Shown here: in pieces, positions 408-60,685 of the stretch | How positions within the stretch are numbered: position 1 is the stretch's first letter | How the letters are laid out: each line of letters starts with the position of its first letter | Assembly (NCBI GenBank): GCA_045601365.1 | Contig: JAZRZN010000103.1 | Location: 4,435 to 68,434 of the forward strand | Length of the DNA: 64,000 nucleotides | From: Clostridia bacterium | Lineage (GTDB): Bacteria; Bacillota; Clostridia; Christensenellales; QALW01 | Direction of reading: 5' to 3' | Program-made: the position numbers and the translations under genes | Notes under the pieces: generated by a model | What the model was told of the DNA's origin: nothing | The model's database searches: none | What the model saw: the letters and a program-made list of their open reading frames with translations, nothing else

Positions 408-434
408 GCGAAACAGTATTTTGAATATAAGAAA

Positions 435-2556: not shown

Positions 2557-2559
2557 TTT

Positions 2560-2901: not shown

Positions 2902-2916
2902 GAGGTCACCTCCAAA

Positions 2917-3282: not shown

Positions 3283-3304
3283 AGATATTGTACGAAACAA
3301 AAAG

Positions 3305-3313
3305 TTATCCACA
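3305..3313 (+). promoter_or_regulatory. Perfect DnaA box TTATCCACA (rpmH-dnaA spacer)
   Basis: Exact 9-mer, 31 bp from the previous box, flanked by an AT-rich tract (aattttataaaaatttc). Confidence 0.75.
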
Positions 3314-3351
3314 ATTTTATAAAAATTTCTTTCAAAAACAACTTTTTTCCC

Positions 3352-3380
3352 TTGATAAACAAACATTTTTATGGTATGAT
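3352..3380 (+). promoter_or_regulatory. Putative sigma-A promoter of dnaA
   Basis: -35 TTGATA (3352-3357), 17-nt spacer, extended -10 TGgTATGAT (3372-3380). Confidence 0.55.
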
Positions 3381-3416
3381 GGTAGCACTCGGCAAAAAAT
3401 GAAAGGAGTGCAGGCT

Positions 3417-4760: not shown

Positions 4761-4773
4761 TTAACAAACAAGG

Positions 4774-6900: not shown

Positions 6901-7169
6901 GGTATACATTATACAATATAAAAACATAAGTAAAATTATCCAAATATATTACGAATTCAGTATTATTTTGCTGTAGAGCAATTTTCTTAAAAATAAATTC
7001 AAATAAAGTTAACAATAAATTAAAAGATTTTTTAACTTTCAAGGCAAAAAAAGCTTGCTTTTTTTCTATAAGCGAGTATAATATTATAAGAATAATGATA
7101 GGTGTGCGAAATCATACGAATAAGCGTTTTATTCGTCGTCGCTTGTCATGCGCATAAGGTGTTGAAATA

Positions 7170-8135: not shown

Positions 8136-8152
8136 GGAGCGGATAAATAATA

Positions 8153-8944: not shown

Positions 8945-8956
8945 GAGTGAGCGGAA

Positions 8957-22247: not shown

Positions 22248-22319
22248 AAATAACAACTCCTTTTATTCTATTTCGTATATTGTATCACACCCGTAAGGTG
22301 AAATGCAATAGAAAAACGC

Positions 22320-32745: not shown

Positions 32746-32923
32746 ACCGCGAATGACAATTGCAATACTGTATTGCAAAAAATTTAATGAAATTTTATAA
32801 TTACCGCAAAATATGCAATGTTCATTTTAACAGTTATAATGTATACTATCATTGTATAGCATAAGGGAATCGAACTCCCATTCATACTGCTTTACAATGC
32901 AAATAAAGATAAGGAGTAGAAGG

Positions 32924-33925: not shown

Positions 33926-33936
33926 GGAATAATGCA

Positions 33937-35799
33937 ATGAAAAAGCTTATAGCATTATTATGTGCTGTGGTTATTGCTTTCTCGATCGTCGGATGCGGCG
34001 GCAACGGCGATAACGGTTCAAGCGATAACGGCGGAAGCGGCAACGGCGGCAGCAACGCCATCGAAACCCCCGCACCCATTCCCGCAACCAAAGATGACAT
34101 AACCGAAAAAACAGATTATACTACACAGCAGTGGGTAGCAGTAGACATTCCGTTCACGGCTACCGAGAAATCAAAGAACATAGTCGATACCGAAATGGAT
34201 GTCACCTTTACGAACCGTGAGACCGGCACAAAAATGGTAATGCCTGCATTCTGGAACGGCGGTACGGATTGGATAGTACGTTTTGCTCCCACGGAGTACG
34301 GCGTTTGGGATTACACGACAGCAACCACCGGCAAGGATATCGGTCTTTCCGGCAAAAGCGGTACGCTTGCGTGCAATTCATACAAGGGCGATCTTGAGAT
34401 ATATCAGCGCGGCTTTGTAAAGACTGAGGCTGACAAGAGATATTTTGTATATAATGACGGCACACCGTTCTTCTATCTCGGTGATACGCACTGGGCTATG
34501 CTCCAGGAAGAATTTGATGCTCCCGGTAAGCATGCCGCCGACATTAAGACGGATTCGCACTTCAAGTATATAGTTGACAAGCGCGTTTCGCAGAGATTTA
34601 CAGTATATCAGAGCGAACCTATCGGTTCGAAATTCGATGTTTCCGACGGTAATGTCGGCGCGGGTGATGTTACCGGATTCCAGATGTGTGATAAATATTT
34701 CGCCTACATCGCGGAAAAAGGACTTGTTCATGCAAATGCACAGCTTATCTTCCCAAGCTCATGCACAAAGAAATTCAGCGAAAACATCCGTGCGCTCACA
34801 CGTTATTGGGTAGCGCGATATGCGGCATATCCCGTGCTTTGGTCACTCGGTCAGGAAGTTGATAACGGCAGTAACTATCCTGATGCTTACAATATGCCCG
34901 ATACATATGTTGAAATGTGCAAAATACTCAGTGAGGTCGATCCGTACAAGCATCCCACGACCGCACATCAGCTCAATGCGGCATCTGTAAACGCTACGGG
35001 ACAGGTTGCGGTCCGCGGTATAGACGGCGGCTACAATAATTATGATCCTGCAAGCACGAAGACCATCGGTACCACAAAACAGTCGGCGTTCTACAGTAAG
35101 CCCGGTCATACATGGTGGGGCGTTCAGTGGAGACCTACCGTAGACCAGCAGTATAATTTCAAAATTCCCAAAAACTATTGGTTCTTCGGCGAGAATAAAG
35201 TTGCCATCAACTATGAAAGCAGATACGATTATCTTTATACCAAGAATTTCGGTGCGCGTGTAAGCGGCTGGATAACCTATTTAAGCGGTATGTACGGCTA
35301 CGGCTACGGTGCGGCGGATATATGGTGCTACTTAAGCACATATTCGTTTGATGAAGCCGGCAATGACGGTGTAGATACCATCACGACCGATGATAAAAAG
35401 ATGCCGTGGGGCGAAGCAGTGCTTATGCCGACAGGTGACCAGATGACATATCTCAGAGGTTTCCTTACCTCGGCAGGCTGGTGGAAGCTCGTTCCGAACT
35501 TCGATGACGGTGGCTACTTCGTAAAAGATGAGGCGCAGGAGGGATGTTACGCCGCCGCTAATGACGGCAACGATACTTACGTTACCTACCTTTACAGCAA
35601 GACAAAAGCAGGCGTCGGTCATCTTGCAAAGATGGACGGCAAGGCAACATATACTGCGCAGTGGTTTGACCCGAGAACCGGCGAATATTCGCTTATCAGC
35701 ACGGAGATCAAACCGACAAAATCGGGTGACGATTACATCTATCAGATACCCGAGAAGCCGCAAGCTGACGACATGGCGTTGCTTGTAACCAAAAACTGA
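33937..35799 (+). CDS. Lipoprotein DUF5060/DUF4038 (GH140-like) glycoside hydrolase
   Basis: MKKLIALLCAVVIAFSIVGCGG lipobox, then a Gly/Ser/Asn linker. The body aligns along its length with 20613-22247 (MDVTFTNRETGTKMVMPAFWNG..WIVRFAPTEYGVWDYT; FYLGDTHWAM; YTAQWFDPRTGEY). Confidence 0.7.
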   Translation: MKKLIALLCAVVIAFSIVGCGGNGDNGSSDNGGSGNGGSNAIETPAPIPATKDDITEKTDYTTQQWVAVDIPFTATEKSKNIVDTEMDVTFTNRETGTKMVMPAFWNGGTDWIVRFAPTEYGVWDYTTATTGKDIGLSGKSGTLACNSYKGDLEIYQRGFVKTEADKRYFVYNDGTPFFYLGDTHWAMLQEEFDAPGKHAADIKTDSHFKYIVDKRVSQRFTVYQSEPIGSKFDVSDGNVGAGDVTGFQMCDKYFAYIAEKGLVHANAQLIFPSSCTKKFSENIRALTRYWVARYAAYPVLWSLGQEVDNGSNYPDAYNMPDTYVEMCKILSEVDPYKHPTTAHQLNAASVNATGQVAVRGIDGGYNNYDPASTKTIGTTKQSAFYSKPGHTWWGVQWRPTVDQQYNFKIPKNYWFFGENKVAINYESRYDYLYTKNFGARVSGWITYLSGMYGYGYGAADIWCYLSTYSFDEAGNDGVDTITTDDKKMPWGEAVLMPTGDQMTYLRGFLTSAGWWKLVPNFDDGGYFVKDEAQEGCYAAANDGNDTYVTYLYSKTKAGVGHLAKMDGKATYTAQWFDPRTGEYSLISTEIKPTKSGDDYIYQIPEKPQADDMALLVTKN

Positions 35800-35890: not shown

Positions 35891-35903
35891 GGGACGCTGT
35901 CCC
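35891..35903. repeat. GC-rich palindrome gggacgctgtccc (same family as 41236-41327, opposite orientation)
   Basis: Its reverse complement, gggacagcgtccc, matches the core of the copies at 41.2-41.3 kb. Confidence 0.6.
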
Positions 35904-36990: not shown

Positions 36991-38076
36991 ATGCGCACGA
37001 CAAGAACGCCAAAACGGTTTGATATAGTCGATTTTATGCCGCTGATACTTGCGGCGACAGCAATAATCGTCATAGTGTCGGTAACAGCATTACTGATCCC
37101 GGAAAAAGTCAAAAGTATAGCGGATAGCGAGCTTAAGGCACTTCCGTTTGAAAAGGGAACGGTTTACAAAACGTTAGGCAACGGAATAGTATATATAGAT
37201 TCCGAAAAAGGAAACCTGTATTATCTTGATGACAGAAATGAGGTCATGTGGGGATATTCCGGCACTGATGCCGATATGAAGCTCTATACCTGCGATACGC
37301 GCGTCGGCATCGCGGAGGGCAAAAAGCTTCAGGTCATCAACAAGGACGGTCAGCATGTGTTCTCAAAGGAATTTGACAGAAATATCTTCGATGTCGCAAT
37401 GGGTGATAAGCTTATTGCCGTAAGCCTCAGTCGCTCTGACGATACCATAATCCTGAACAGTACAGGCGAGGAGATAGACAGAATAACATCCAACAGCAAT
37501 TGCACCAATATCCGATTCGGTGTGTATTCGGGCGGAAGCGTGTGGGTGATAACTGTTGAAAATTCGGGATATTCGCCGGAATTCAGGCTTTCGACATATA
37601 AATACGATACGGGCAAGACTCAGACCGTAACGTTTGAGGACGACAGCCAGATGATGTACGATGCCGCTTTTGACGATAAGCTGTGCTATATTTTCGGAAC
37701 GGAGCGCATAATGGTGCGCGATTGCGATTATACCGGCACGGTAAACTATGATTATAACGTAAACGGCTACGATGTGACATCAATAGGCATGCTGGATAAA
37801 AAGATGCATATACTGCTGCTTAACAACGGATACTTGAAAGCGATAAACGGAAGAAAAGTAAGTGATATGCAATGCTCTGAAAAGATACTGTATGCATATG
37901 TTTCGGAAAAGCATTATTATGCGTTCAGCAAATATTTCATGTATCGCTTTGATCCTGACAGCGGCAAAAACGCAAAGTACCGTTTTCCTGTCCGAATCGA
38001 CGGATTTGAGCAAGGAAAGGATTTTGCAGTGATCGAATCCTGCGGAACACTGTACAGATACGGCATCCCGGCGTAA
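36991..38076 (+). CDS. N-terminally anchored hypothetical protein (possibly beta-propeller; DUF5711-like)
   Basis: RBS ggagga and one TM span (aa 16-36). The remainder is beta-rich with repeated G-x-V/I-Y patterns. No confident family. Confidence 0.55.
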   Translation: MRTTRTPKRFDIVDFMPLILAATAIIVIVSVTALLIPEKVKSIADSELKALPFEKGTVYKTLGNGIVYIDSEKGNLYYLDDRNEVMWGYSGTDADMKLYTCDTRVGIAEGKKLQVINKDGQHVFSKEFDRNIFDVAMGDKLIAVSLSRSDDTIILNSTGEEIDRITSNSNCTNIRFGVYSGGSVWVITVENSGYSPEFRLSTYKYDTGKTQTVTFEDDSQMMYDAAFDDKLCYIFGTERIMVRDCDYTGTVNYDYNVNGYDVTSIGMLDKKMHILLLNNGYLKAINGRKVSDMQCSEKILYAYVSEKHYYAFSKYFMYRFDPDSGKNAKYRFPVRIDGFEQGKDFAVIESCGTLYRYGIPA

Positions 38077-38821: not shown

Positions 38822-40756
38822 ATGTCTGAAAATAACGAAAATAACGAAACTAACGTAATCGATGAAAACAGCCGGGAAAATGAAATGACTGAGACACCGG
38901 AAAATGCCGTCAGCACAGATGATTCCGTAAGTGAAACCAACGCAAAAAAGAATTCACTGAGCGAAAAGCTTCGGAAATTACCGAAAATGAGCGTGACGCA
39001 AATAATCATCACCTGTGTTGTGGCGGCATTGCTTGTTGTTATGGCGGTAATAGCCGTTACGGTCACATGCGGGAAATATGATCCGTCAAAATATAATAAA
39101 ACAAAATACAGTGCTGCGGGCGGTGCGCCGCAGAAACACGCGAACCTCAACAAGCTTGAGATGCTTGCCGGCGAAAACGGTTCGTCCGATATATGTTTTT
39201 CATTCTGTTCGGGGAGCGGCGATACCTCGGAATGCGGCATTCCCGAATATTCGGTCGAATTTCTTCAGTCACCGCTACGGCTCAAGGTTACGTTTAAGGA
39301 GCTTGAATACTGGGATTACATAATTGCGGGTACTCCGTCGGATTCAAACGGAATTATCAAAGGCATGTTCCGTATGGCGGATGCGGCAACGAAAGAAACC
39401 GTCATGTATTTCAATCTTTCGGGCGATGTGAAGTTCAATGTAAACGAAAGTGAAAATAAGCTTACGGTATCACTCATCAAAAACGCGAAAGATAAAAATG
39501 AGCAAAAGTGGTATGTCCTGTGCGATCTGTACTATGAGTATCAGGCAGGCGAAATGCCGGATGCGGGCTTTACGCCGACGTTGTGCAGTGATAACATAAG
39601 CGTTATTATGATAAGCGAAGGTTATAAAAGTGAGGCGGATGCTTCAAAACGGTGCGACGAGCTGTTGACGGGAGAATTTGAGGGAGTGCCGATGAGAGTC
39701 GTCAAGCTTGACCGCTTCACATTGCCGGAATATTCGGAAAATACGAATGTTCTCGCACTGCTTAATGAATCGGTGCTGTCAGTCAACGGTGCCAAAAAAA
39801 CACTTCCGTTATTCTTTGCGGATGCACGTTTCCTTTGCTGGCTTCCCGATAACAGCGGTGCGCTGTTTTCAAAGCCGGAGGAGAGCGGAGAAGTATTTTA
39901 CGTTGCCGACAAGGACGGCACAAAGCACCGCCTTTTGGATCAGAGCTTTGCTACGATCGTAAAGGCAGCGTATTCGGGTAACGGAGAATACCTTAGCTTC
40001 GTTGAACAAAAGGATGATGTGAGCCTTGTGACGGTAGCCGATATTTCAAGCGGCGAGCTGACGGTCATAGGAAGCGATTCCGAGAGCAAGATATTGGGCG
40101 ATATGATAATCGGCATTGCAATGAATGATGACGGTTCCAAACTGTTCTGCCTGAGCGGAGACCAAATATATTCACTCAAGGAATATGACATCAACACAAA
40201 AGAAATCGTGATCCTTGCTTCGGATATTATTACCGAAAGCGACATTACCTATAATGACGGCTATCTTTATTATTGTGATGTTGTTGATGAAACAGAGGCC
40301 GTTGTGCGCACAAGCACACGCGAATTTTTGCCGCGCGAGGTGATAGCACGGGGCGCACAGTTTTCACTTTCGCCGGACGGACATTATCTTGCGGTACTTA
40401 CAGAGGATTATGACACTGCCGTTTGTGATCTGCGCATCGTAAACGTTACCGATAAAACCGCCGAAGTCGTGCAGGCTGATATCGTTTCGGGTGAGTTTTT
40501 CATCGCAAGCGACAGCAGAACGCTGTTCTATATCACCGAAACAGGCGATGAAGAATTCTATTATCAGATAATGAAATACGATATAGACGGTAAAGAAAGC
40601 GCTGTTATGGCACAGTGCATCAATGCGGTGTTCTTCCCGTCAAATAAGCCCGATGAAATCATTATCAGCGTTATTTACACTTCCGACGGCATCACACATC
40701 CCGTGACATATATCGCTGATTTCGCTGCCGACGATTTTGCAGGTGAACAAGGTTGA
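38822..40756 (+). CDS. Single-pass membrane protein with an acidic N-terminal tail, a SPOR-like segment and a TolB/PD40-like beta-propeller ectodomain (hypothetical)
   Basis: 644 aa with TM at aa ~60-83. ISVIMISEGYKSEADASKRCDELL..VPMRVVKLD is SPOR-like. The C-terminal part has repeated S-x-DG-x-x-L/F blades. Calls are architectural only. Confidence 0.5.
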   Translation: MSENNENNETNVIDENSRENEMTETPENAVSTDDSVSETNAKKNSLSEKLRKLPKMSVTQIIITCVVAALLVVMAVIAVTVTCGKYDPSKYNKTKYSAAGGAPQKHANLNKLEMLAGENGSSDICFSFCSGSGDTSECGIPEYSVEFLQSPLRLKVTFKELEYWDYIIAGTPSDSNGIIKGMFRMADAATKETVMYFNLSGDVKFNVNESENKLTVSLIKNAKDKNEQKWYVLCDLYYEYQAGEMPDAGFTPTLCSDNISVIMISEGYKSEADASKRCDELLTGEFEGVPMRVVKLDRFTLPEYSENTNVLALLNESVLSVNGAKKTLPLFFADARFLCWLPDNSGALFSKPEESGEVFYVADKDGTKHRLLDQSFATIVKAAYSGNGEYLSFVEQKDDVSLVTVADISSGELTVIGSDSESKILGDMIIGIAMNDDGSKLFCLSGDQIYSLKEYDINTKEIVILASDIITESDITYNDGYLYYCDVVDETEAVVRTSTREFLPREVIARGAQFSLSPDGHYLAVLTEDYDTAVCDLRIVNVTDKTAEVVQADIVSGEFFIASDSRTLFYITETGDEEFYYQIMKYDIDGKESAVMAQCINAVFFPSNKPDEIIISVIYTSDGITHPVTYIADFAADDFAGEQG

Positions 40757-41063: not shown

Positions 41064-41235
41064 CTACGAACAAACAAAACTGTATGTCATATGCCGTAGG
41101 GTGCGGCATCCGCTGTCGCACCGCTTGCGGCGAGCCATAACACAAAATTCGCTCGGCAACGTTCACGCCGAGCGAATTTGTATAAAACAATAAAAGTTTT
41201 TGGCCGAGCTTTTTTCAAAAAAAGCTCGCAGGGTG

Positions 41236-41327
41236 GGGGACAGCGTCCCGCGGGCAGGGTTTGGGGCAGAGCCCCAAGAGAGGGGTGTGGGGACAGCGTC
41301 CCCACGAAGAAAAGGGGCAGCGTCCCC
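41236..41327. repeat. Cluster of GC-rich palindromes (REP-like)
   Basis: ggggacagcgtccc 41236-41249; ggggcagagcccc 41263-41275; ggggacagcgtcccc 41289-41303; ggggcagcgtcccc 41314-41327. Lies immediately 3' of the minus-strand operon. Confidence 0.7.
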
Positions 41328-41345: not shown

Positions 41346-42191
41346 TTAAACTCCCGAGTAAGCGGCAAAACCGCCGTCAACTGGAACCACAACGCCGGTA
41401 ACGAAGCCGGACGCCTCATCGGAGACGAGCCACAAAAGAGTGCCGGTCAGGTCTTCGACGTCGCCGAAACGGTCCATAGGAGTGCCGCGCAGAATCTTTT
41501 CGGTTCTTGCGGTGGGCTTACCGTCCTTGAAAAGCAGGTCACGGTTCTGATTGGTCACAAAGAATCCGGGAGCAATGGCGTTTACTCTTATTCCGCAGGG
41601 CGCGAAGTGTACCGCAAGCCATTGTGTGAGGTTAGATACAGCCGCTTTAGCCGCCGAATAAGCGGGTATCTTCGTAAGCGGGCGGGACGCATTCATGGAT
41701 GAAACGTTCAGAATGACACCGCCGGTCTTTACCATTTCCTTTGTGAATGCCTGCGTGGTAAGCACTGCCGCAACGACGTTTAAGTCGAATACGAAACGGA
41801 TGCCGTCGGGATCAAGCTCAAAGAATGTTTTGATATCCTTGTTATCGAGCATGTCGGGCGTCATCTGCTCATTATCGGTAGTGCCGCGCGGATTGTTGCC
41901 GCCCGCACCGTTGATAAGGATATCGCATGCGCCAAGCTCTTTTACAACGACATCGTGTGCCGCCTCAAGGCTGTCGCTCTTAAGACAGTTCGCTTCAACG
42001 GCGATAGCGTTGCCGCCGTCGGCGTTTATCTCGTCAGCGACCTTTTTCGCCGCCTCAAGATTGATATCAAGTAAGGCGACCTTCGCACCGCACGCGGCAA
42101 GTGCCTTTGCAAAGCCGGAGCAAAGCACGCCGCCCGCACCGGTGATAACGGCTACCTTGCCGTTCAAATCAATAGAAAAAGGAAGTTTCAT
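41346..42191 (-). CDS. SDR-family oxidoreductase, UxuB/YjmF-like (D-mannonate/fructuronate oxidoreductase candidate)
   Basis: VAVITGAGGVLCSGFAKALA (Rossmann fold) and a YSAAK catalytic motif. 281 aa. Last gene of the uxaC-uxuA operon. Confidence 0.65.
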   Translation of the reverse strand: MKLPFSIDLNGKVAVITGAGGVLCSGFAKALAACGAKVALLDINLEAAKKVADEINADGGNAIAVEANCLKSDSLEAAHDVVVKELGACDILINGAGGNNPRGTTDNEQMTPDMLDNKDIKTFFELDPDGIRFVFDLNVVAAVLTTQAFTKEMVKTGGVILNVSSMNASRPLTKIPAYSAAKAAVSNLTQWLAVHFAPCGIRVNAIAPGFFVTNQNRDLLFKDGKPTARTEKILRGTPMDRFGDVEDLTGTLLWLVSDEASGFVTGVVVPVDGGFAAYSGV

Positions 42192-42209
42192 TATTTTTTT
42201 CTCCTTGTT

Positions 42210-43259
42210 TTACTTTTTGTCTGCGCGAACGATAGCTTCCCACAGACCGTTTATGTATGAAGCGCCGAGCGCACGGTCGAATAAGCCGTAGCCCGGGCGA
42301 CCGTCCTCGCCCCAGATGTTTCTGCCGTGGTCGGGACGTGTGTAGCCGTCAAAGCCGTTATCGTAAAGTGCCTTCATTATGCCGTACATGTCAAGACTTC
42401 CGCAAGCGGTGGGGTGTGGGCTTTCGTTGAAGCGACCTTCACCCGTAAAGCGGATATTGCGTGCGTGCAGGAAGTGTATTCTGCCCATTTTCGCGTACTT
42501 TGCGGCAAGCTTCACCATGTCGTTCCTGGGGTCACAGCCGAGCGAACCGGTGCAGAGCGTTATGCCATTGTACTTCGAATCGACCGCGGCAAACATTCTG
42601 TCAATGTTCTTTTCGCAGGTGATTATGCGGGGCAGACCGAACATGCTCCACGGCGGATCGTCGGGATGTATCGCCATTTTGACGTCACATTCCTCGCAAA
42701 CGGGAATGATCTTCTTTAAGAAGTAGATAAGATTTTGCATGAGCTGTTCTTCGTCGATGCTCTTGTACGCGTCAAGCAGACCCTTGAGTTGTTCCTTTGT
42801 GTAGCTCTCGTCCCAGCCGGGAAGCGAAAGCTCACCCTTGGCGGGATCCATTGCGTTTACGGTCTTCTGATCGTACGCAAGGCAGGTCGAGCCGTCGGGA
42901 TTTTTCATTTTAAGGTCACTGCGAAGCCAATCGAACACCGGCATGAAGTTGTAGCAGATGACTTTTACGCCTGCCACGCCAAGATTGCGGATGTTCTGAC
43001 AGTAGTTTTCAATAAGTCTGTCACGCGACGGTGTGCCCATTTTGATGTCCTCGTGTACGGGAACACTTTCGATGACTTCCATTTTGAGATTCTTTGCGTT
43101 CACCTTTTCCTTGAGCGCGAGAATGCGTTCAAGCGGCCATACTTCACCCACGGGAACATCGTAGATCGCCGTAACGACACCGCTCATCTGCGGTATCTGG
43201 CTGATGTATTCGAGCGTTACGGGATCGTTTTCGCCATACCAGCGGAAAGTCATATCCAT
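42210..43259 (-). CDS. uxuA: Mannonate dehydratase
   Basis: 349 aa from ATG 43259 with RBS aaggagg 10 nt upstream. MDMTFRWYGENDPVTLEYISQIP is the typical N-terminus. The listed start at 43478 is an extension. Confidence 0.9.
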   Translation of the reverse strand: MDMTFRWYGENDPVTLEYISQIPQMSGVVTAIYDVPVGEVWPLERILALKEKVNAKNLKMEVIESVPVHEDIKMGTPSRDRLIENYCQNIRNLGVAGVKVICYNFMPVFDWLRSDLKMKNPDGSTCLAYDQKTVNAMDPAKGELSLPGWDESYTKEQLKGLLDAYKSIDEEQLMQNLIYFLKKIIPVCEECDVKMAIHPDDPPWSMFGLPRIITCEKNIDRMFAAVDSKYNGITLCTGSLGCDPRNDMVKLAAKYAKMGRIHFLHARNIRFTGEGRFNESPHPTACGSLDMYGIMKALYDNGFDGYTRPDHGRNIWGEDGRPGYGLFDRALGASYINGLWEAIVRADKK

Positions 43260-43278
43260 AGGTCGTGATCCTCCTTGA

Positions 43279-44670
43279 TTATAAATTAAAGAAATTTTTG
43301 GCATTTTCGTAAGAAATGCCCTCAATAAGCTTGCCGCAATCGGGATCGAACTCGCCGTTTTCCACCCATGTGCCGATCTCGTTGCAGAGTATCCTGCGGA
43401 AGAAATCGAAACGAACATACGATGTGAACGAGCGCGAATCGGTGAGCATGCCGATGAACCTGCCCAAAAGTCCCGCATCGGCGAGTGAATGAAGCTGAGC
43501 CTTTATGCCGTCAACATGGTCGTTGAACCACCACGCCGAACCGAGCTGCATCTTGCCCGGAACTTTTTCGGAAAATGCACCCGTCATCGCGGCGATCATG
43601 TCGTTGACCGTTGCGTTGAGCGAGTAGAAAACCATTTTCGGCAGACCGCATTCGGACTCTCTGTTGATGCGGTCAAGTATGCGTGCAAAACGCTCCGCGG
43701 AGATCGGATCGCCGACAACGTCGATGCCCGAATCGGCACCCACGCGGTCGAACAGCTTGCTGTTCACGTTGCGAAGGGGCGACATGTGCAACTGCATGAC
43801 CATGTTGCGTTTAGCATAGAGCGAAGCGAAGAAGAAGGTCATGTAGTCGGTGTACTTTTCTATCTCGTCGGGATCGAGAAGCTTGCCGTGCAGAGCCTTG
43901 GTGAATATCTTTTTCGCTTCGTCATAGCCGCAGGTGACGGGGGAGAGCGTGTTCAGCGCATGATCCGCCACTACGCAACCGAGCGAAACGAAGTAATCAA
44001 GACGCTTTTCAAGCACCGCAAGCAGTGTTTCAAAGTTGCGTATCTCGGTGTTTTCCGTCTTGCCGAGACGCTCGATATAGAAAAGGATATCCTTGTCGTT
44101 GAGCTTGAAGCAAATCTTGTCGGGACGGAACGTCGGCAGTACGCGCACGAAGCCGAGATCCTGCATCTTTTTGTGATATTCAAGGCTGTCGGCAGGATCA
44201 TCGGTGGTGCAAATGACCTTTACGTTGCAACGCTTGATAAGCTCCTGCGAGGTAAAGCCGCCAGAGGCTATGCGCTCGTTGGCTTCGTTCCAGATGCCCT
44301 CCGCGCTCCTTGAATTAAGCGGACGGTTTATGCCGAAAAGCTGCTTTAATTCCATGTGCGACCAATAGTAGAGCGGGTTGCCGGGAGCGTATTCCATGGT
44401 GGAGGCAAACGCAACGAACTTGTCCTTCCAATCGGCACTGCCCGTTATAAGCTCCTCGTCGATGCCGTTCTGACGCATGGCACGCCATTTGTAGTGATCG
44501 CCCGCAAGCCAAAGCTGACCGATATTGTCGAATTTTACGTTTTCGTATATTTCTTTGGGGTCAAGATGGCAGTGGTAGTCGATTATCGGCTGATTTTTTG
44601 CATATTCCGCGTACAGCCTCTCAGCCGAAGCGTTGGAGAGCAGACAGGAATCATCAAAAAAGTTTTTCAT
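43279..44670 (-). CDS. uxaC: Glucuronate isomerase
   Basis: 463 aa. IIDYHCHLDPKEI, WLAGDHYKWRAMR, SAWWFNDH. Confidence 0.9.
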   Translation of the reverse strand: MKNFFDDSCLLSNASAERLYAEYAKNQPIIDYHCHLDPKEIYENVKFDNIGQLWLAGDHYKWRAMRQNGIDEELITGSADWKDKFVAFASTMEYAPGNPLYYWSHMELKQLFGINRPLNSRSAEGIWNEANERIASGGFTSQELIKRCNVKVICTTDDPADSLEYHKKMQDLGFVRVLPTFRPDKICFKLNDKDILFYIERLGKTENTEIRNFETLLAVLEKRLDYFVSLGCVVADHALNTLSPVTCGYDEAKKIFTKALHGKLLDPDEIEKYTDYMTFFFASLYAKRNMVMQLHMSPLRNVNSKLFDRVGADSGIDVVGDPISAERFARILDRINRESECGLPKMVFYSLNATVNDMIAAMTGAFSEKVPGKMQLGSAWWFNDHVDGIKAQLHSLADAGLLGRFIGMLTDSRSFTSYVRFDFFRRILCNEIGTWVENGEFDPDCGKLIEGISYENAKNFFNL

Positions 44671-44679
44671 AATATACCT

Positions 44680-45678
44680 CTAAAATAAAATATCGTTGCC
44701 CTTTGAGGCGTACATCGCAAGCAGTACCTTTACGGCTCTTGCCGCCTCCGATACGCTTATCGGCATATCGCTTCCGCTTTCAAGGCGCGAATAGAAATCA
44801 TCAAAGAGCATTTTGTGACCTACGCCCCAATACGCCTTGCCGTTTACAAGCAATGCGTCATCGTGCGCGTTCTGCGGCACGCCGTCGATAAAGATGTCAT
44901 CATCGTGAAGCGAAATGACTGCGTTTTCGCATTTTATCTCAAGCTTGACGGGTGAATCGCAGAAATAAGCGGTGGTGGCATAGAACATGCCGTGTGCGCC
45001 GCCGGGGAACGTGAGATACGCGCTTGCGGTATCTTCAACGTCGATAACGCCCTGCAAGTGATAATTTGCCGTAAGTGCGCTGAGCTTCTCGGGATCACCG
45101 CAGAGCCACAACATGAGGTCGAGCGTATGTATCGCCTGATTGATCATGACGCCGCCGCCCTCGGTGACCATTGAGCCGCGCCAATGGCTGTCGGTGTAGT
45201 AATGCTCACCGCGCGACCACAGTACCTCGCCGCTTGCAAACTGCACCTTGCCGAATTTTTCGCTTTCCACAAGTTCCTTTGCCATTTTGTTGCGGGCAAG
45301 ATAGCGGTTCTGGAATGAAATGCATATCTTTGCTTTGCTTTTGCGTTCGGCTTTTTCAAGTGCCGCAAGCTGGTCAAGGTCGATGCAGACAGGCTTTTCA
45401 AGCAGAACGTTTATGTTCCGCTCAAGCGCCGCTATCGCCATTTCGGCATGCAGATAATGCGGGGTGCATATGTGCAAGACATCGGGCTTGACATCATCGA
45501 GCATTTTGAGATAATCGTCAAAAACGAGAGCGTCGGGGGCGAAATCAGCCTTGAGCTTTTCCGCCCTTTCGACAAGAACATCGCATACGGCGACGATTTT
45601 GACATTTTGCATTTGAGTAAGGTTTGTGGCATGTGTCTGCGCGATACAGCCACAGCCGACTATTGCTGTTCTGAACAC
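44680..45678 (-). CDS. Gfo/Idh/MocA-family NAD(P)-dependent oxidoreductase
   Basis: GTG start after ggagat. AIVGCGCIAQTHA Rossmann N-terminus and EKPV motif. 332 aa. Confidence 0.85.
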   Translation of the reverse strand: MFRTAIVGCGCIAQTHATNLTQMQNVKIVAVCDVLVERAEKLKADFAPDALVFDDYLKMLDDVKPDVLHICTPHYLHAEMAIAALERNINVLLEKPVCIDLDQLAALEKAERKSKAKICISFQNRYLARNKMAKELVESEKFGKVQFASGEVLWSRGEHYYTDSHWRGSMVTEGGGVMINQAIHTLDLMLWLCGDPEKLSALTANYHLQGVIDVEDTASAYLTFPGGAHGMFYATTAYFCDSPVKLEIKCENAVISLHDDDIFIDGVPQNAHDDALLVNGKAYWGVGHKMLFDDFYSRLESGSDMPISVSEAARAVKVLLAMYASKGNDILF

Positions 45679-45694
45679 GTCAAATCATCTCCGA

Positions 45695-46888
45695 TTATTT
45701 TTTGTATGAGCTTGAAAAATCGGAAGAAACGGCGCTTGCGTTTTCGTCCTTTGAAACGGTTGAATTTTTGATATGCTCCTGAAGAAGCTCATAGTATTTC
45801 TTGCCGTCAAAGGGAATGTCAACGGCTTCGTTTGTCCAAGCGGACATGAGCATCGCATCGGCGAGCTGAACACCCTTTATGCCGTCTGAGGCAGGTGCGT
45901 AAAGCTCTTCAAGTCCGAGCAGTGTGTTTGCGAAGTTGTTGAGTATTCCGGCATGCTGGGGATTGTCGCCTGTCGTGTCTACCTCGATGACCTCTGCCTT
46001 GGGCTTACTGAATGAGGCGGGCTCTGTCTTTATATGCTCGCTTGTGGGCATTTCGTTCTTCCAGAAGGTGACCTTACCTTCATCGAAAACAAGCTTCCCG
46101 AGTTCGCCGGTAACTTCGAAACGGTTTGTTCCGGGGGCATCGCCGGTCGTTGTGATGAACACGCCGGTAGCGCCGTTCTCATATTCAAAGTAAGCGGTAA
46201 CGTCGTCCTCTACCTCGATGTTGTGATATTTACCGAACGAGCAGAATGCACGTACCTTCTTGGGCATCATATCGGGTATCCACTGAAAAAGATCGATGTT
46301 GTGGGGAGCCTGATTGAACAGCACGCCGCCGCCCTCGCCCTTCCATGTAGCACGCCAGCCGCCGCCGTCATAATATGACTGTGTGCGGTACCAATCGGTG
46401 ATTATCCAGTTAAGACGTGTGATCTTGCCGAGTTCACCGTCAGCGATCATCTGCTTCATTTTCTTGAATGCGGGGTTCGTTCTCTGGTTGAACATGATGC
46501 CGAGCTTAAGGTTGGGATATTTTTTGGCTTCCTCAAGCATTTCTTCCACTTGAAGCGTATAAACGCCAGCGGGCTTTTCAACGATGGCGTTCATGCCGTT
46601 CCTGAGCGCCTTGATGGCGTATTCGGGGTGGAAATAGTGGGGGATGGCTATGATGACTACATCACAGCATTTTGCGGCGATAAGCTCATCGCCCGAGCCG
46701 AAATACTGAACGTGTGCGCTCTCCTCGGGATGCTCTGCGGCGATAGCCTTGATGCCGTCAAGCTTTTCGGGCTTGAGGTCGGCGATAGCGGATACATAGC
46801 CGTTTATGATCTTGCCGCCCATAAAATTGTAGAAGTGCGCTCTTCCCATGTTACCTGCGCCGATGATACCGAATCTTATTTTTTCCAT
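45695..46888 (-). CDS. Gfo/Idh/MocA-family oxidoreductase (long, ~400-aa type)
   Basis: FGIIGAGNMGRAH and VEKPAG motifs. 397 aa. 13-nt overlap with the upstream TIM-barrel gene. Confidence 0.85.
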   Translation of the reverse strand: MEKIRFGIIGAGNMGRAHFYNFMGGKIINGYVSAIADLKPEKLDGIKAIAAEHPEESAHVQYFGSGDELIAAKCCDVVIIAIPHYFHPEYAIKALRNGMNAIVEKPAGVYTLQVEEMLEEAKKYPNLKLGIMFNQRTNPAFKKMKQMIADGELGKITRLNWIITDWYRTQSYYDGGGWRATWKGEGGGVLFNQAPHNIDLFQWIPDMMPKKVRAFCSFGKYHNIEVEDDVTAYFEYENGATGVFITTTGDAPGTNRFEVTGELGKLVFDEGKVTFWKNEMPTSEHIKTEPASFSKPKAEVIEVDTTGDNPQHAGILNNFANTLLGLEELYAPASDGIKGVQLADAMLMSAWTNEAVDIPFDGKKYYELLQEHIKNSTVSKDENASAVSSDFSSSYKK

Positions 46889-47760
46889 TTTCCTTCTCCT
46901 TCTGCATAACCTGAATTTTTTAATATATCCTTGAGGGCATTGACTGCCGCATCAAATGATTCATTGTTGTCCGCATATTCAAAATGATGTTTAAGCGTAC
47001 GCTTGTCAAGATTCGAATAGCCCGTGAAATTGAAAAGATGAGGCTCTACGGTAATGAATGTGTCCCTGTCGCCGCGTGCCGCTGCCGTCTTTTCGATAAC
47101 GAGAGATATTTTGCCGTCGCCGAAGCCTGCGGGAACTATTGCGTGATCCTCATATGTGCCGTCCTTGATGTGCAGATAATCTACATAGGGGGCGATGCGG
47201 TCTATTGCTTCGGGGATATCTTCGTTTTCCATTATGTAGTTGCACGGGTCGAATATCGCGTGCAGACGCGGAAGCTTTTTTTGCAAATATTCGCACTCAC
47301 GCGCAAGCCGTCCGAAAATGCGGGCTTCGTTTTCGTGGCAGAGCGTCACGCCCTCTTTTTCGGCGTAATCAAGCATCGCCGTAAGACGTGCAAGCACTTC
47401 GTCGGCATAGTCCATGGCATCTTTGCCGTCGGGAATAAAGAATGAGAACATTCTTATTTTTTTTGTGCCGAGTATCTGTGCGGTCTTTACCGCCTTTTTG
47501 AATCGCTCGAAATGCGGTTCGAACGGCTCAATGATGTCATACTTGCCGATGGGCGAGCCGAGCGAGGAGACCTTGATGCCGGCGGAGGCAAGCTCGTCGG
47601 CAAAAGCCTTTATTTCGTCTTCCGTATAGTCTATCACGCATTTGCCATCTATGGCGCGTATCTCGATATACTCAAGACCGTTGCGCTTGAGCGCATCTAT
47701 CTGTCCCTTTAAGTCCGATGCCGCTTCGTCGGCAAATGCCGAAATCAAAAACCGTGCCAT
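46876..47760 (-). CDS. Xylose-isomerase-like TIM-barrel protein ('sugar phosphate isomerase/epimerase')
   Basis: 294 aa from ATG 47760 (TAATG overlap with the upstream stop). LEYIEIR, LCHENE and HIKD motifs typical of the AP_endonuc_2 fold. Confidence 0.8.
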   Translation of the reverse strand: MARFLISAFADEAASDLKGQIDALKRNGLEYIEIRAIDGKCVIDYTEDEIKAFADELASAGIKVSSLGSPIGKYDIIEPFEPHFERFKKAVKTAQILGTKKIRMFSFFIPDGKDAMDYADEVLARLTAMLDYAEKEGVTLCHENEARIFGRLARECEYLQKKLPRLHAIFDPCNYIMENEDIPEAIDRIAPYVDYLHIKDGTYEDHAIVPAGFGDGKISLVIEKTAAARGDRDTFITVEPHLFNFTGYSNLDKRTLKHHFEYADNNESFDAAVNALKDILKNSGYAEGEGKWKK

Positions 47761-48551
47761 TATTTTATCCAACCCTTCGCTTTGATATTGTCGTAGCTTA
47801 TCTTCATCTGTTCCCAACTGCTGCTGAACGTGGGCGCATTGTCCTGTTCTACATAGGCGACCTTGACGGTCTTTACGTCGTTGAGAGCTTTGATGATATC
47901 ATCTGTCGGCATACTGCCGCTGTATATGGGAGTTATAAGCTCATACGGCTGTTTGCCTTCACACTCGGGATGGAAATCCTTCAAGTGAACATATTCAAGA
48001 CGGTCCGCATATTTTCTGATGTATGCGGGAGCATCCGCGCCCGCGAACGCCGCCCAGCCGCAGTCAAAAGTAAAGTTCCAATTCGTTTTCTCAAAGAAAA
48101 TGTCAAGGGGAAGCGGTTCGCCGTTCCTGCTTGCGAACTCAAGTGCATGGTTGTGATATGCGAGCTTGAGACCGGCATCGTTGAGCTTCTTTGTGGCATC
48201 GGAAAGGTCGGATACCATTTTTTCGGCAAGTACGTATCTTACACCGTCGATTTCCTCGAGGTAGCCGCCGGGATATCCGATACCGACAACATCGACACCG
48301 AGTGCCTTGTGCCTTGCGATGACATCGGCGGTATTGTTTATTATTTCAGCTATACCGCCTCCGACATGGGTAAGACCGATGTGCAGACCGAATTCTTCAG
48401 CCGCGTCGCGAGTTGCAACAGGGTCGTATGCAAAGCCGCTGACCTGAACGCTTGTATAACCGATATCCTTCATTGCCTTGAAAGTATTTCTGATACCGTC
48501 CTGTGAATCGCATGTGTCGCGTACCGAATAAAGTTGTGCGCCGATTATCAT
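47760..48551 (-). CDS. Xylose-isomerase-like TIM-barrel protein ('sugar phosphate isomerase/epimerase')
   Basis: 263 aa. MIIGAQLYSVRD..., AYHNHALEF, YVHLKD. RBS ggaggtg. Confidence 0.8.
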   Translation of the reverse strand: MIIGAQLYSVRDTCDSQDGIRNTFKAMKDIGYTSVQVSGFAYDPVATRDAAEEFGLHIGLTHVGGGIAEIINNTADVIARHKALGVDVVGIGYPGGYLEEIDGVRYVLAEKMVSDLSDATKKLNDAGLKLAYHNHALEFASRNGEPLPLDIFFEKTNWNFTFDCGWAAFAGADAPAYIRKYADRLEYVHLKDFHPECEGKQPYELITPIYSGSMPTDDIIKALNDVKTVKVAYVEQDNAPTFSSSWEQMKISYDNIKAKGWIK

Positions 48552-48572
48552 AATTACACCTCCAAAAAAATA

Positions 48573-48601
48573 TTGAAAAATTATTCAACTTGTATTATAC
48601 T
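48573..48601 (+). promoter_or_regulatory. Putative promoter of the AraC regulator in the divergent control region
   Basis: TTGAAA (48573-48578), 17-nt spacer, TATACT (48596-48601). Confidence 0.45.
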
Positions 48602-48685
48602 ATATATGCAACGAAAAAAACATTGCAAATTATGCTGTTTTTATAGCAAATTTACAAACAAAATTCAATATCGGAGAGTATTTTT

Positions 48686-49492
48686 GTGGAACAGGCTGAA
48701 CATATACGGTTCAAAGGCTTTTATTATCATCATACTGTGACCGACAGCCCGGTGAAGGATGACTTCCAGAGGCACTGCCATAATATGTACGAAATAATCT
48801 ACATCAGGCAGGGAAGCGGCACGTTTTTTGTCGAGGGCTCGTCATACAGTATACATCCGGGATGTCTGCTCGTATTTCGCCCGAGGGAGTTCCATTGCAT
48901 CAATATATCGCAGGATTGCGGCTATGAGCGGCTCGTAGTGCATTTTGACGAAAGCATCGTCTTTGAAAATTCGGCTCTTTTGCTTGATATTTTCAATAAC
49001 AGAGAGCTGGGTGTGAACAATCTTTATCCCGGGATAAATTCAAATATATCGGATACGTTTGCACGCATCTCGTCATGTACCGAGCTGAATGAGCCGGAAC
49101 GTTCGATAATGGCAAAGCTGATCCTTAATGAATTGCTTGTCGGTCTGCATAACGAATTTTCGCCCGGAGCGCGGTCTGAAACGGGAGAAAGGCTCATAAC
49201 ACGCATGGTAAATTACATAAATGATAATATTTCGGAACAGTTCAGGCTTGAAGAGCTTGCCGAAAAATTTTTCATTAGTAAATACCATTTGGGGCATATG
49301 TTCAAAAAATATACAGGCATGCCGGTCATGGAATACATAATACGCAAGCGTGTGGTGCTGGCACAACAGCTCATCGCCGACGGATGTCAGGCGTCGATAG
49401 CCGCGTCAATGTGCGGCTTCAACGACTATTCGGCGTTTTACAGAGCATACATAAAATATATAGGAGCCAAGCCTTCGGAGGAAGCAAAATAG
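48686..49492 (+). CDS. AraC-family transcriptional regulator (cupin sensor + HTH)
   Basis: GTG start 9 nt after ggag. N-terminal cupin (HCHNMYEIIYIRQGSG) and C-terminal AraC HTH (FISKYHLGHMFKKYTG...GFNDYSAFYRAY). Confidence 0.85.
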   Translation: MEQAEHIRFKGFYYHHTVTDSPVKDDFQRHCHNMYEIIYIRQGSGTFFVEGSSYSIHPGCLLVFRPREFHCINISQDCGYERLVVHFDESIVFENSALLLDIFNNRELGVNNLYPGINSNISDTFARISSCTELNEPERSIMAKLILNELLVGLHNEFSPGARSETGERLITRMVNYINDNISEQFRLEELAEKFFISKYHLGHMFKKYTGMPVMEYIIRKRVVLAQQLIADGCQASIAASMCGFNDYSAFYRAYIKYIGAKPSEEAK

Positions 49493-56043: not shown

Positions 56044-57570
56044 TTACATTTGCTTTGAAAGCTTGGTAAGAAGTACTTTCCGAGCTTCGTCGGGAAGAGA
56101 AGGATCGGTTGAAAAATGTGAGAAATCTTTTGCAATGCTTTCGGAAAGCTCACGCACTGTTGTGATCCCTTTTGCTTCTGCAAGCTTCAGAAGTTCCCAA
56201 TCCTCAAAGCCCTCAAGTGTGGCAAGATATCGCGCTGACGGATATACGGGCGTTTCTGTGTCACCGGGGTAAATGATATATCCGTCACCTTTGAAGCGGG
56301 CGAGAGGCGAAAGTCCGTACATGTCGGTTCCCCAAAAATTGAAGCCCCAATGCAGAAAACCGTCCATGCGCTGTGAAAAACATGCCCACTCTATAAGGCG
56401 CGGATAGATGAGCGGACGGTCAACGAAATGATTGAGCCACCAATATTCCTCGGGATAGCAACAGCAGTAACACCACAGCTCAGCACCGTTTTGTTTAAGA
56501 CGATGATAAAAATCGGGATCGGTCGCGTAGACTTCGAAGCGGGGAATATAGAAGTCACATTCGCCGTCAAGTCCGACGGACACCGAATGAGTGTCGAGCG
56601 GATCGCCGCACGGAACGCCCGGCATGCATTTTTTGCATTTTTCGTGCGCCCAACGCCACGTTTCGCAGGAATGCGGTTCATCCTGAAGATGCATGCGAAG
56701 CATCGACAGCCATCCCTTTTCCTTGAAATGCTCATAGACAGAGGTAAGGAAAACCTCAGCCCATTCATCGGCTTCTTTTGTTCCGATATCGAGCGGGCGC
56801 TTGCCGCCTGTGCCGTCGGGGGCAAATATTTTGCCGCCTGTGACCGCGTTGCAGAAGTGCGAAACGGTTATATATCTGAATGAACCGTTTTTAAGAAATA
56901 ATTCCGTTACGCGGTCGGCAAGCGAAAAATCGAATTTGCCGTCGGTGAAAGAATCAAAGAATATTTCAAAAGGCAGACGCAGACTGTTTATGCGCAGTGC
57001 TTTCATGCTTTGCGCAAATGCGATAAGCGTATTTTCCCATTGCTTTGAGCCGACGGGATATGCGTACTGCTTGCCTTCGCCGAAGCATGAAAAAATGTCG
57101 AAGAAGTATTCGTGTAATATTGATGAGTTATCGGGTTCGGGCAATGTTACGGGAAAAACATTCAGTGTCCATTCGATGTCTGCATTTTTCTCCGAGGTTT
57201 CGATATGGAGCGTTATACCGTTTTTGCCGATCGGTGCTGTACTGCTGACATCAAATACGAAAAACACCGCTTGTGTGCAATGCGCGGGAACGCTCAGCTC
57301 TTTTAATGCTTCGACCGGGACAAGTCTGTCAGGATACGGAACTTTGTCGGAAAAAATCTCATCACAGGCAAAATATGCTTTGTATGTTACGCCGTCGGGA
57401 ACATCTGCGGCGATGCGGTTTACGGTGAAAGCTTCCCATGAACGAAGCAGAACGCGTCCCGTTACAGTCATGTCAAGCCCGCTGTAAAGCTCAAGAAATT
57501 CTCTTGATGCTTCTTTCGGACGCTCGTTTCTTAAAATGTTTTCACAGCCATTCGCGCTCCAGATAAACAT
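56044..57570 (-). CDS. DUF4091-domain protein (putative glycoside hydrolase), cytoplasmic
   Basis: 508 aa with RBS aaggag. WCYCCCYPEEYWWLNHFVDRPLIYPRLIEWACF...FLHWGFNFW resembles the DUF4091 core. Confidence 0.55.
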   Translation of the reverse strand: MFIWSANGCENILRNERPKEASREFLELYSGLDMTVTGRVLLRSWEAFTVNRIAADVPDGVTYKAYFACDEIFSDKVPYPDRLVPVEALKELSVPAHCTQAVFFVFDVSSTAPIGKNGITLHIETSEKNADIEWTLNVFPVTLPEPDNSSILHEYFFDIFSCFGEGKQYAYPVGSKQWENTLIAFAQSMKALRINSLRLPFEIFFDSFTDGKFDFSLADRVTELFLKNGSFRYITVSHFCNAVTGGKIFAPDGTGGKRPLDIGTKEADEWAEVFLTSVYEHFKEKGWLSMLRMHLQDEPHSCETWRWAHEKCKKCMPGVPCGDPLDTHSVSVGLDGECDFYIPRFEVYATDPDFYHRLKQNGAELWCYCCCYPEEYWWLNHFVDRPLIYPRLIEWACFSQRMDGFLHWGFNFWGTDMYGLSPLARFKGDGYIIYPGDTETPVYPSARYLATLEGFEDWELLKLAEAKGITTVRELSESIAKDFSHFSTDPSLPDEARKVLLTKLSKQM

Positions 57571-60623: not shown

Positions 60624-60685
60624 AATAAACACACTCCTTTTTCTTTATTTTATCGTAATACCGTCAAAAAGTAAAGTGATTTGTA

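Follow-up and report, generated by a model that had tools for sequence, protein, structure and literature searches.

Which substrate is handled by an operon that joins two oxidoreductases of the Gfo/Idh/MocA family and two triosephosphate isomerase (TIM) barrels of the xylose isomerase fold to the genes for glucuronate isomerase (uxaC), mannonate dehydratase (uxuA) and fructuronate reductase (uxuB)? The question is raised by seven closely packed genes, at positions 41346-48551 on the minus strand, in a stretch of 64,000 nt from contig JAZRZN010000103.1 of an uncultured Clostridia bacterium from the gut; by "the window" we mean this whole stretch. An AraC gene lies opposite the seven genes in divergent orientation. 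We regard it as likely that the locus is a cytoplasmic, glucuronidase-independent operon for glucuronide utilisation, in which oxidation and elimination free glucuronate for direct catabolism. Gene content, homology, conserved catalytic residues and genomic coupling come from the present analysis, and the chemistry is taken from a homologous gene cluster, P2B11. A first-pass annotation of the window had proposed an oxidation/elimination route that frees glucuronate without a glucuronidase, and this proposal is supported by the P2B11 precedent, by the homology of two of the proteins (Gfo1 and TIM1) and by the linkage to the uxu genes. The novelty that it implied for the chemistry does not stand. 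Since the chemistry and the homologous cluster were published in 2024, in a preprint by Nasseri et al. and reportedly also in Nature (631:199), the locus represents the same kind of system and not a new mechanism.

The four-gene cassette and its uxu genes

Reading away from the regulator, the operon opens with the genes for the two TIM barrels, TIM1 (47760-48551, 263 aa) and TIM2 (46876-47760, 294 aa), both of which match Pfam AP_endonuc_2 (PF01261). They are followed by the genes for the two oxidoreductases, Gfo1 (45695-46888, 397 aa) and Gfo2 (44680-45678, 332 aa, with a GTG start), each with three Gfo/Idh/MocA Pfam domains, and then by uxaC (43279-44670, 463 aa), uxuA (42210-43259, 349 aa) and uxuB (41346-42191, 281 aa), all on the minus strand. 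TIM1 and TIM2 are joined by a stop/start overlap, TAATG at 47760, which contains the ATG of TIM2; TIM2 and Gfo1 overlap by 13 nt (46876-46888), and the remaining intergenic gaps measure 16, 9, 19 and 18 nt. On the plus strand the AraC-family regulator (48686-49492) combines a PF02311 cupin/AraC_binding sensor with a PF12833 HTH_18 domain, and beyond it lie dprA and then topA (Pfam, NCBIfam). The coordinates confirm the seven packed genes, both overlaps and the divergent regulator of the first-pass annotation. A 313-aa form of TIM2 with a TTG start and a 422-aa form of UxuA, which would run 200 nt into uxaC, are artefacts of the open reading frame (ORF) listing; in both cases the real start sits behind a Shine-Dalgarno sequence, which for the ATG of uxuA is AGGAGG.

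It is clear from the family scores that the three distal genes encode the UxaC-UxuB-UxuA hexuronate isomerase pathway, since all three enzymes exceed the curated equivalog/subfamily cut-offs of NCBIfam: 533 bits against 387 for UxaC (NF002794 equivalog; Pfam PF02614, E=7e-179), 393 against 200 for UxuA (TIGR00695; PF03786) and 412 against 281 for UxuB (NF006132), a D-mannonate oxidoreductase (fructuronate reductase) of the short-chain dehydrogenase/reductase (SDR) type. As had been noted from the sequence, there is no glycoside hydrolase, transporter, kdgK or kdgA gene within the operon. For KdgA, KdgK and GPH (glycoside-pentoside-hexuronide family) transporters this negative now extends to the 64-kb window, where tblastn with queries from related loci returned no homologues, and Pfam scans, which took in every window ORF from 200 aa upwards, showed no glucuronidase of glycoside hydrolase family 2 (GH2). 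Signal peptides are not visible in Gfo1, Gfo2, TIM1 or TIM2, whose N-termini open straight into the first beta-strand or Rossmann motif, and since none of the four proteins has one, we place the system in the cytoplasm.

The precedent for such a gene set is the P2B11 fosmid, which carries four genes for two oxidoreductases (Oxido1 and Oxido2) flanked by two "sugar-phosphate isomerases" (10.1101/2024.03.25.586180). In combination, the four encoded proteins hydrolyse alpha- and beta-glucuronides by a 3-keto mechanism, with rates that are similar for the two anomers, and they cleave thioglycosidic as well as glycosidic bonds (10.1101/2024.03.25.586180). Oxido1 is essential, both isomerases strongly raise the rate and the effect of Oxido2 is minor; the reaction is stimulated by Mn2+ and Co2+, and substrates with a 6-PO4 or 6-SO4 group as well as sulfoquinovosides are cleaved slowly, at rates below those for glucuronides (10.1101/2024.03.25.586180).

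In a search of all PDB sequences Gfo1 matched 8TDI, "P2B11 Glucuronide-3-dehydrogenase", with 298 bits (6e-88, 46% identity over 370 aligned residues), and the runner-up among solved structures reached 100 bits only. Six active-site residues of 8TDI (N147, W179, R181, Y185, N205 and H209), which fall in the motifs FNQRTN, WYRxxSY and NQAPH, are all kept in Gfo1, where they correspond at a constant offset to N134, W166, R168, Y172, N192 and H196. From its sequence Gfo1 is predicted to be a glucuronide 3-dehydrogenase and the counterpart of P2B11 Oxido1.

For TIM1 the best sequence matches were chains of AL1 and BT1 (8TCS, 8TCD, 8TCR and 8TCT; phmmer, E=1.5e-14 for 8TCS, 8TCD and 8TCT), which are 3-keto-beta-glucopyranoside 1,2-lyases with a described mechanism (10.1101/2024.03.25.586180). 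When its AlphaFold2 (AF2) model, with a predicted local distance difference test score (pLDDT) of 97, was compared with known structures by Foldseek, AL1 (8TCD/8TCR) came first, followed by BT1 (8TCT) and unannotated homologues from Parabacteroides, with AtOGE (8BVK), an O-glycoside beta-eliminase of Agrobacterium, at rank 8. The metal and substrate residues of AL1, namely H103, H178, H180, D211, W214 and H237, map to H62, H133, H135, D163, W166 and H189 of TIM1, and all six are invariant in an alignment of 40 sequences. TIM1 is accordingly a predicted 3-keto-glucuronide 1,2-lyase (beta-eliminase) of the AL1/BT1 kind.

TIM2 has no BLASTP similarity to TIM1, the two proteins belonging to different TIM barrel subfamilies, and it matched no NCBIfam model. 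Its invariant residues E143, D171, H197 and E239 form a Glu-Asp-His-Glu set, and the fold neighbours of its AF2 model (pLDDT 93) are generic: ketose 3-epimerases, UlaE, Art22 and IolI, with the hydratase AtHYD at rank 37. We predict a role as 2-hydroxy-3-keto-glucuronal hydratase and/or as the lyase for the other anomer, and it is such a split of labour between TIM1 and TIM2 that we infer. Gfo2 has the motifs FxNR, WxRxxxY and NQAxH in common with Gfo1; its nearest solved relatives are, in order, 3Q2I and 3Q2K, 8TDI and DgpA, and a counterpart is missing from some related cassettes. It is predicted to be the counterpart of Oxido2, presumably acting as a 3-keto-glucuronate reductase or as a partner in redox recycling.

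For a comparison with the complete P2B11 set we turned to Faecalimonas umbilicata DSM 103426. Its cluster, in which Oxido1 shares 79% identity with 8TDI, served as a proxy for P2B11 Iso1, Iso2 and Oxido2. BLASTP gave reciprocal one-to-one best matches for the four window proteins: TIM2 with the isomerase encoded 5' of Oxido1 (36% identity), Gfo1 with Oxido1 (42%), Gfo2 with Oxido2, the product of the gene after Oxido1 (35%), and TIM1 with the 3' isomerase (28%). We take this as evidence that the window carries the same four-component system in a strongly diverged form, with the lyase gene moved from the 3' to the 5' end.

On these grounds the following route can be proposed. Gfo1 with tightly bound NAD+ would oxidise the C3 hydroxyl of a terminal glucuronosyl residue to give a 3-keto-glucuronide, in which H-2 would be acidified by the 3-keto group, so that TIM1, acting as a metal-dependent 1,2-lyase, could expel the aglycone in an elimination of the E1cB (unimolecular, conjugate base) type and leave the uronate form of 2-hydroxy-3-keto-glucal. 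TIM2 would hydrate this enone to 3-keto-glucuronate and/or serve as the lyase for the other anomer, and reduction of the 3-keto group, either by the NADH of Gfo1 in a redox-neutral cycle or by Gfo2, would release free D-glucuronate. UxaC would then convert glucuronate into D-fructuronate, the SDR-type UxuB fructuronate into D-mannonate and UxuA mannonate into 2-keto-3-deoxygluconate, while uptake, KdgK and KdgA would be supplied from elsewhere in the genome. The oxidation and elimination steps have close homology and the conservation of catalytic residues as their basis, the UxaC, UxuB and UxuA steps curated family membership; hydration and reduction are drawn by analogy with P2B11, with the AL/BT enzymes and with the LgdB2 and LgdC steps of levoglucosan breakdown.

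Linkage to glucuronate catabolism and its control

Is the coupling to the Uxu pathway a peculiarity of this contig? The close relatives of the locus come from metagenome-assembled genomes of uncultured human-gut Clostridia, one 97% identical (L001) and about 10 further species at 68-74%. Wherever the contig is long enough, the arrangement topA-dprA-araC / TIM1-TIM2-Gfo1-Gfo2-uxaC-uxuA-uxuB is kept in about 10 related species. The seven-gene order, whose conservation the first-pass annotation had proposed to check, is thus conserved in relatives and its link to uxaC, uxuA and uxuB kept; in these close relatives the conserved arrangement could reflect inheritance alone. Identity to the window differs between the genes: across L002-L017 it is 89-96% for UxuA and 87-92% for UxuB, far above the 75-80% for TopA, the 72-76% for UxaC and the values for the cassette proteins, among which TIM1, at 47-57%, is the fastest-evolving gene of the operon. 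One related locus (L006/L110, JAZRYL010000055.1, about 230-9400) reads tim1-tim1-tim2-gfo1-gfo1-gfo2-uxaC-uxuA-uxuB, and its tandem copies of TIM1 and Gfo1 suggest a diversification of substrate range within the operon.

Beyond the close relatives, loci were fetched with the 8TDI sequence from species-representative genomes, at least 595 stretches of which encode a relative. Outside the close relatives the same partners recur in changed order. Another Clostridia lineage has araC / TIM-TIM-Gfo-Gfo-uxuA-uxuB, the cultured Paludicola sp. MB14-C6 has araC / uxaC-uxuA-uxuB-kdgA-kdgK-TIM-TIM-Gfo, and a number of Oscillospiraceae, with Subdoligranulum, Ruthenibacterium and Faecousia among them, have tim2-gfo1-gfo2-tim1-uxaC(-uxuA-uxuB); many further permutations occur. 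A further arrangement consists of a TIM gene, a putative TIM2::Gfo1 fusion, uxuA and uxuB. Putative fusions of this kind (P0063, 689 aa; P0068, 687 aa; L108, 1393-3462) are followed by uxuA-uxuB, and since the two genes overlap by 13 nt in the window, a frameshift could create them. The order tim2-gfo1-gfo2-tim1, which is the "flanked" layout of P2B11, was found in 25 of 41 loci from Lachnospiraceae and Oscillospiraceae, with the four genes present in 25 of 25. Hexuronate genes lie within 9 kb in 25 of the 54 window-type loci for which a TIM partner was detectable; the tblastn count of loci with "no TIM partner" is partly a threshold artefact.

In actinobacteria a uxaC-like gene accompanies 31 of 39 loci. 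The Arthrobacter cassette has as neighbours a LacI regulator, an Opp-type ABC transporter, a UxaC-like gene, a reductase of the mannitol dehydrogenase family, a GPH transporter and a ManD-like dehydratase of the enolase superfamily, so that the same pathway steps are carried by non-homologous enzymes, a case of non-orthologous displacement. The partners always belong to the Uxu (gluco) branch, with no homologue-based sign of UxaB or UxaA of the galacto branch, which fits a gluco-configured uronate as the product. The preprint on P2B11 saw "no apparent nearby transporter/regulator" and leaves hexuronate genes unmentioned (10.1101/2024.03.25.586180), and our search of the literature on glucuronide 3-dehydrogenase, 3-keto-glucuronides and a link to uxaC found no follow-up beyond it. 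What is new relative to the preprint is that the cassette shares an operon with the glucuronate pathway, that its AraC regulator and promoter are conserved, and that the coupling recurs across phyla.

Some of the related loci have further features of their own. In Paludicola sp. MB14-C6 (L105, CP133133.1, 12033-16914) the run of genes from uxaC to the cassette is directly followed by nagA and nagB, a further TIM barrel gene (the third) and another two Gfo/Idh/MocA genes, which may be a second 3-keto-type module for substrates that contain amino sugars, or may hint at disaccharides of glucuronic acid and N-acetylglucosamine. Paenibacillus amylolyticus CP168019 (L158, 8087-11334) and about 20 other Bacillales loci have a three-gene TIM-Gfo-Gfo set that lacks hexuronate neighbours and is probably a related 3-keto module acting on a different substrate. 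In P. amylolyticus a TIM partner is indeed present, as a diverged AP_endonuc_2 gene that overlaps the start of the Gfo1 homologue, a case that shows the threshold artefact in the tblastn count.

The control of the operon was approached through the 134-nt spacer between araC and TIM1, which we aligned in 11 species with flanking proteins of no more than 47-79% identity. Together with a consensus scan, this phylogenetic footprint places the operon promoter and a probable operator at 48594-48638 on the minus strand. A conserved block, ACAGCAnnATTTGCAATG, holds the -35 element TTGCAA (48628-48623) and is followed, after an 18-nt spacer, by TATAGTATAAT with the -10 element TATAGT (48604-48599); the block coincides with the best promoter prediction on the minus strand. 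The arrangement points to an AraC-dependent promoter with an operator that overlaps or abuts the -35 element, to which AraC would bind, and the probable role of this divergent regulator is to activate the operon at the conserved ACAGCA..TTGCAA element. The divergent position of araC is kept in every relative whose contig extends that far. Weaker AraC-like matches adjoin 13 of 41 loci of the P2B11 type, and upstream of the F. umbilicata cassette there are genes for an AraC-like protein and a GPH (MFS_2) transporter.

At the other end, about 170 nt downstream of uxuB, a perfect hairpin of 13-14 bp (41145-41179, minus strand) is tentatively taken as the operon terminator; its tail is not T-rich. 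The G+C-rich palindrome GGGRCAGCGTCCC occurs in four copies against 0.11 expected by chance. Three of them (41237-41249, 41290-41302 and 41314-41326, plus strand) stand in the 590-nt spacer downstream of uxuB and one (35891-35903, minus strand) just past the 35799 end of a GH140-like gene. The motif resembles small intergenic repeats of the repetitive extragenic palindromic (REP) kind.

With jag, yidC and dnaA at its left end (513-4760), the window adjoins the chromosomal replication origin. Its other content (Pfam) includes a capsule locus, cohesin and cohesin-dockerin proteins, sporulation genes and FTHFS. Scattered among housekeeping genes are carbohydrate-active enzymes (CAZymes), two of them GH140-like (apiosidase-like; 20613-22256, minus strand, and 33922-35799, plus strand) and the others GH28 (59190-60632), GH63/MGH1-like (22371-23606) and GH123-like (56044-57570), all three on the minus strand (Pfam). 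The CAZymes and the cohesin and dockerin proteins point to a plant-wall degrader oriented towards pectin and rhamnogalacturonan II (RG-II). Five ORFs of 708, 261, 357, 361 and 644 aa (4774-6900, 8957-9742, 32852-33925, 36991-38076 and 38822-40756) have no Pfam match above noise, the last of them converging on the 3' end of the operon. The operon had also been described as richer in G+C than the cohesin locus. This is correct (0.50-0.52 against 0.40-0.41) but uninformative, as the cohesin/capsule locus is an AT-rich outlier. Horizontal transfer cannot be read from the difference: housekeeping genes at 20-22, 26-28 and 50-56 kb have values of 0.49-0.52, equal to the operon, and the synteny topA-dprA-araC-operon is conserved across the lineage.

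Glucuronides and the competing substrates

Several observations weigh against a glucuronide operon of the kind proposed. No transporter is linked to it in the operon or in the whole window. At identities of 46, 36, 35 and 28% to the P2B11-type proteins, the substrate range could differ from that of P2B11. Gfo1 homologues of about 50% identity occur in Paenibacillus in TIM-Gfo-Gfo modules without hexuronate genes, which means that the Gfo1 family is not mono-functional and spans several specificities. Since TIM2 has no close solved relative and generic fold matches, a hydratase is not discriminated from an epimerase. Finally, in the wider clade the cassette stands beside uxuA/uxuB without uxaC in 17 loci (L111, L112, L114, L116, L123, L124, L126, L135, L139, L144, L148, L151, L153, L156, L166, L173 and L180), to which L106-L108 can be added, and with uxaC in 6, an excess that would not be expected of a cassette yielding free glucuronate in every case. 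The simplest explanation places uxaC, which is common to the galacturonate branch, elsewhere in those genomes.

The composition of the cassette would also suit a cyclitol pathway of the inositol type, in which two dehydrogenases and two TIM barrels, acting as dehydratases or epimerases, turn an inositol into a keto-aldonate or a uronate for entry into the Uxu steps; the inositol route of Thermotoga ends in tagaturonate/fructuronate. IolG is indeed the top NCBIfam name for both Gfo proteins and IolE that for TIM1, and structures of IolI and IolE are among the fold matches, but the scores lie far below the curated cut-offs (89-103 bits against 355 for IolG, TIGR04380, and 52 against 290 for IolE, TIGR04379), so that a check set beforehand for clustering with inositol enzymes found none. 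For Gfo1, moreover, the glucuronide 3-dehydrogenase gives three times the score of any inositol dehydrogenase, and the top matches of TIM1 are 3-keto-glycoside lyases. Other iol genes are absent from the window among the ORFs covered by Pfam, and both the window and the related loci were without any sign of an iolB/C/D/J-like gene, a hydrolase for ring cleavage or a transporter for inositol. We hold a cyclitol substrate to be very unlikely. The fold neighbours of TIM2, ketose 3-epimerases and UlaE, lead to another idea, a salvage epimerase module upstream of UxaC/UxuB that converts some other free uronate or keto-aldonate into glucuronate or fructuronate through oxidation, epimerisation or isomerisation, and reduction. 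The many cassettes beside uxuA/uxuB without uxaC would make sense if the product were already a ketose uronate, and the window lineage has neither a transporter nor an aglycone-handling gene linked to the cassette. A free sugar acid is nevertheless an improbable substrate, given that the homologous P2B11 set cleaves glycosidic and thioglycosidic bonds (10.1101/2024.03.25.586180), that TIM1 retains the full lyase residue set of AL1/BT1 and that a GPH transporter gene stands beside the cassettes of F. umbilicata and Arthrobacter. The same P2B11 enzymes slowly cleave 6-PO4, 6-SO4 and sulfoquinovoside substrates (10.1101/2024.03.25.586180), and one could imagine that sulfoquinovosides or 6-sulfo- or 6-phospho-glucosides are the real substrates and the activity on glucuronides a side reaction. 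We give this very little credence, because the rates are lower than for glucuronides (10.1101/2024.03.25.586180), the conserved partners UxaC, UxuB and UxuA make sense for glucuronate only, and sulfoquinovose or sulfatase genes were not seen nearby.

If glucuronides are the substrate, the cassette has a wider meaning. Gut bacteria strip glucuronic acid from drugs, hormones and bilirubin, an activity now credited to GH2 beta-glucuronidases, which are the target of inhibitors that an oxidation/elimination route would escape. The published chemistry concerns cloned enzymes from one fosmid, to which the present locus and its relatives add a physiological frame. The cassette occurs in hundreds of species, and cultured ones such as Paludicola sp. 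MB14-C6 and F. umbilicata DSM 103426 permit induction and knock-out experiments. For annotation the rule would be that a "sugar phosphate isomerase" and a "Gfo/Idh/MocA oxidoreductase" beside uxu genes indicate a glucuronide-cleaving module. There is a small chance that the AraC-controlled cassette with its Uxu genes forms a widespread regulon of gut Clostridia, directed at glucuronides of the plant wall (RG-II, arabinogalactan, xylan) or of host and drug origin. The substrates could then be glucuronosyl linkages that glycoside hydrolases handle poorly. In the sub-lineages without uxaC, TIM2 might also isomerise the 3-keto intermediate, so that the product would be fructuronate and UxaC would be bypassed.

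Comparison with known oxidation and elimination systems

The logic of four steps, oxidise, eliminate, hydrate and reduce, is that of levoglucosan breakdown by LgdA, LgdB1, LgdB2 and LgdC, where two Gfo/Idh/MocA enzymes and two xylose-isomerase-fold proteins work together as they would in the window. The Lgd substrate, however, has an intramolecular 1,6-anhydro bond, and no link to Uxu genes is known for that pathway. The first-pass annotation had likened the four genes to this system, to C-glycoside systems of the DgpA type and to the Bacteroides operon. The composition, the logic and the AL1/BT1-like nature of TIM1 bear it out, whereas the family scores do not: against levoglucosan dehydrogenase (NF052479) Gfo1 reached 75 and Gfo2 70 bits with a cut-off of 650, against BT_2158_fam Gfo2 reached 45 bits with a cut-off of 750 and Gfo1 gave no match, and scores for BT_2159_fam were 18-27 bits with a cut-off of 650. 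DgpA chains scored 41-46 bits with Gfo1, below 8TDI, and 57-90 bits with Gfo2, below 3Q2I/3Q2K and 8TDI, and no DgpB or DgpC chain was found among the sequence matches of TIM1 and TIM2 or among the top 50 fold matches listed for them.

AL1-AL4 of Alistipes and BT2156-2160 of Bacteroides thetaiotaomicron likewise start with a Gfo/Idh/MocA 3-dehydrogenase and break the glycosidic bond by elimination, and TIM1, with the same His/His/Asp/His site, is the counterpart of AL1/BT1. The systems differ in that the window has a second TIM barrel in place of the DUF1080 lyase/hydratase, a domain that is absent among the Pfam matches of the window ORFs scanned, in that the AL/BT enzymes are periplasmic whereas the window proteins have no Sec or twin-arginine translocation (TAT) signal peptides, and in that the predicted substrates of the window bear a C6 carboxylate. 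The 3-keto-glycoside beta-eliminase AtOGE (8BVK) and the 2-hydroxy-3-keto-glucal hydratase AtHYD (8RO4) of Agrobacterium tumefaciens are also xylose-isomerase-fold enzymes for the two non-redox steps, but they are only 15-20% identical to the window proteins, and AtHYD, being a mid-rank fold match of TIM2, cannot confirm a hydratase role for it.

The classical route through a GH2 glucuronidase (GusA/UidA) with GusB/UidB has the same net reaction and the same downstream enzymes, UxaC, UxuB, UxuA, KdgK and KdgA. The window route would differ by proceeding without a glycoside hydrolase, through elimination after C3 oxidation, and both anomers as well as thio-linkages are therefore expected among its substrates and GH2 inhibitors should not act on it. 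The closest known system is P2B11, with the same four components, the conserved active site of Oxido1, a Gram-positive setting, no DUF1080 protein and, by analogy, the same predicted chemistry of C3 oxidation, 1,2-elimination, hydration and reduction. The gene order is TIM1-TIM2-Gfo1-Gfo2 in the window and Iso-Oxido1-Oxido2-Iso in P2B11, a difference that is architectural and not mechanistic, and the sequences are well separated, with only 46% identity between Gfo1 and Oxido1 and 28-42% between the four proteins and the proxy cluster. What sets the window apart from P2B11 most visibly is that its cassette shares one operon with uxaC, uxuA and uxuB, next to a divergent AraC regulator.

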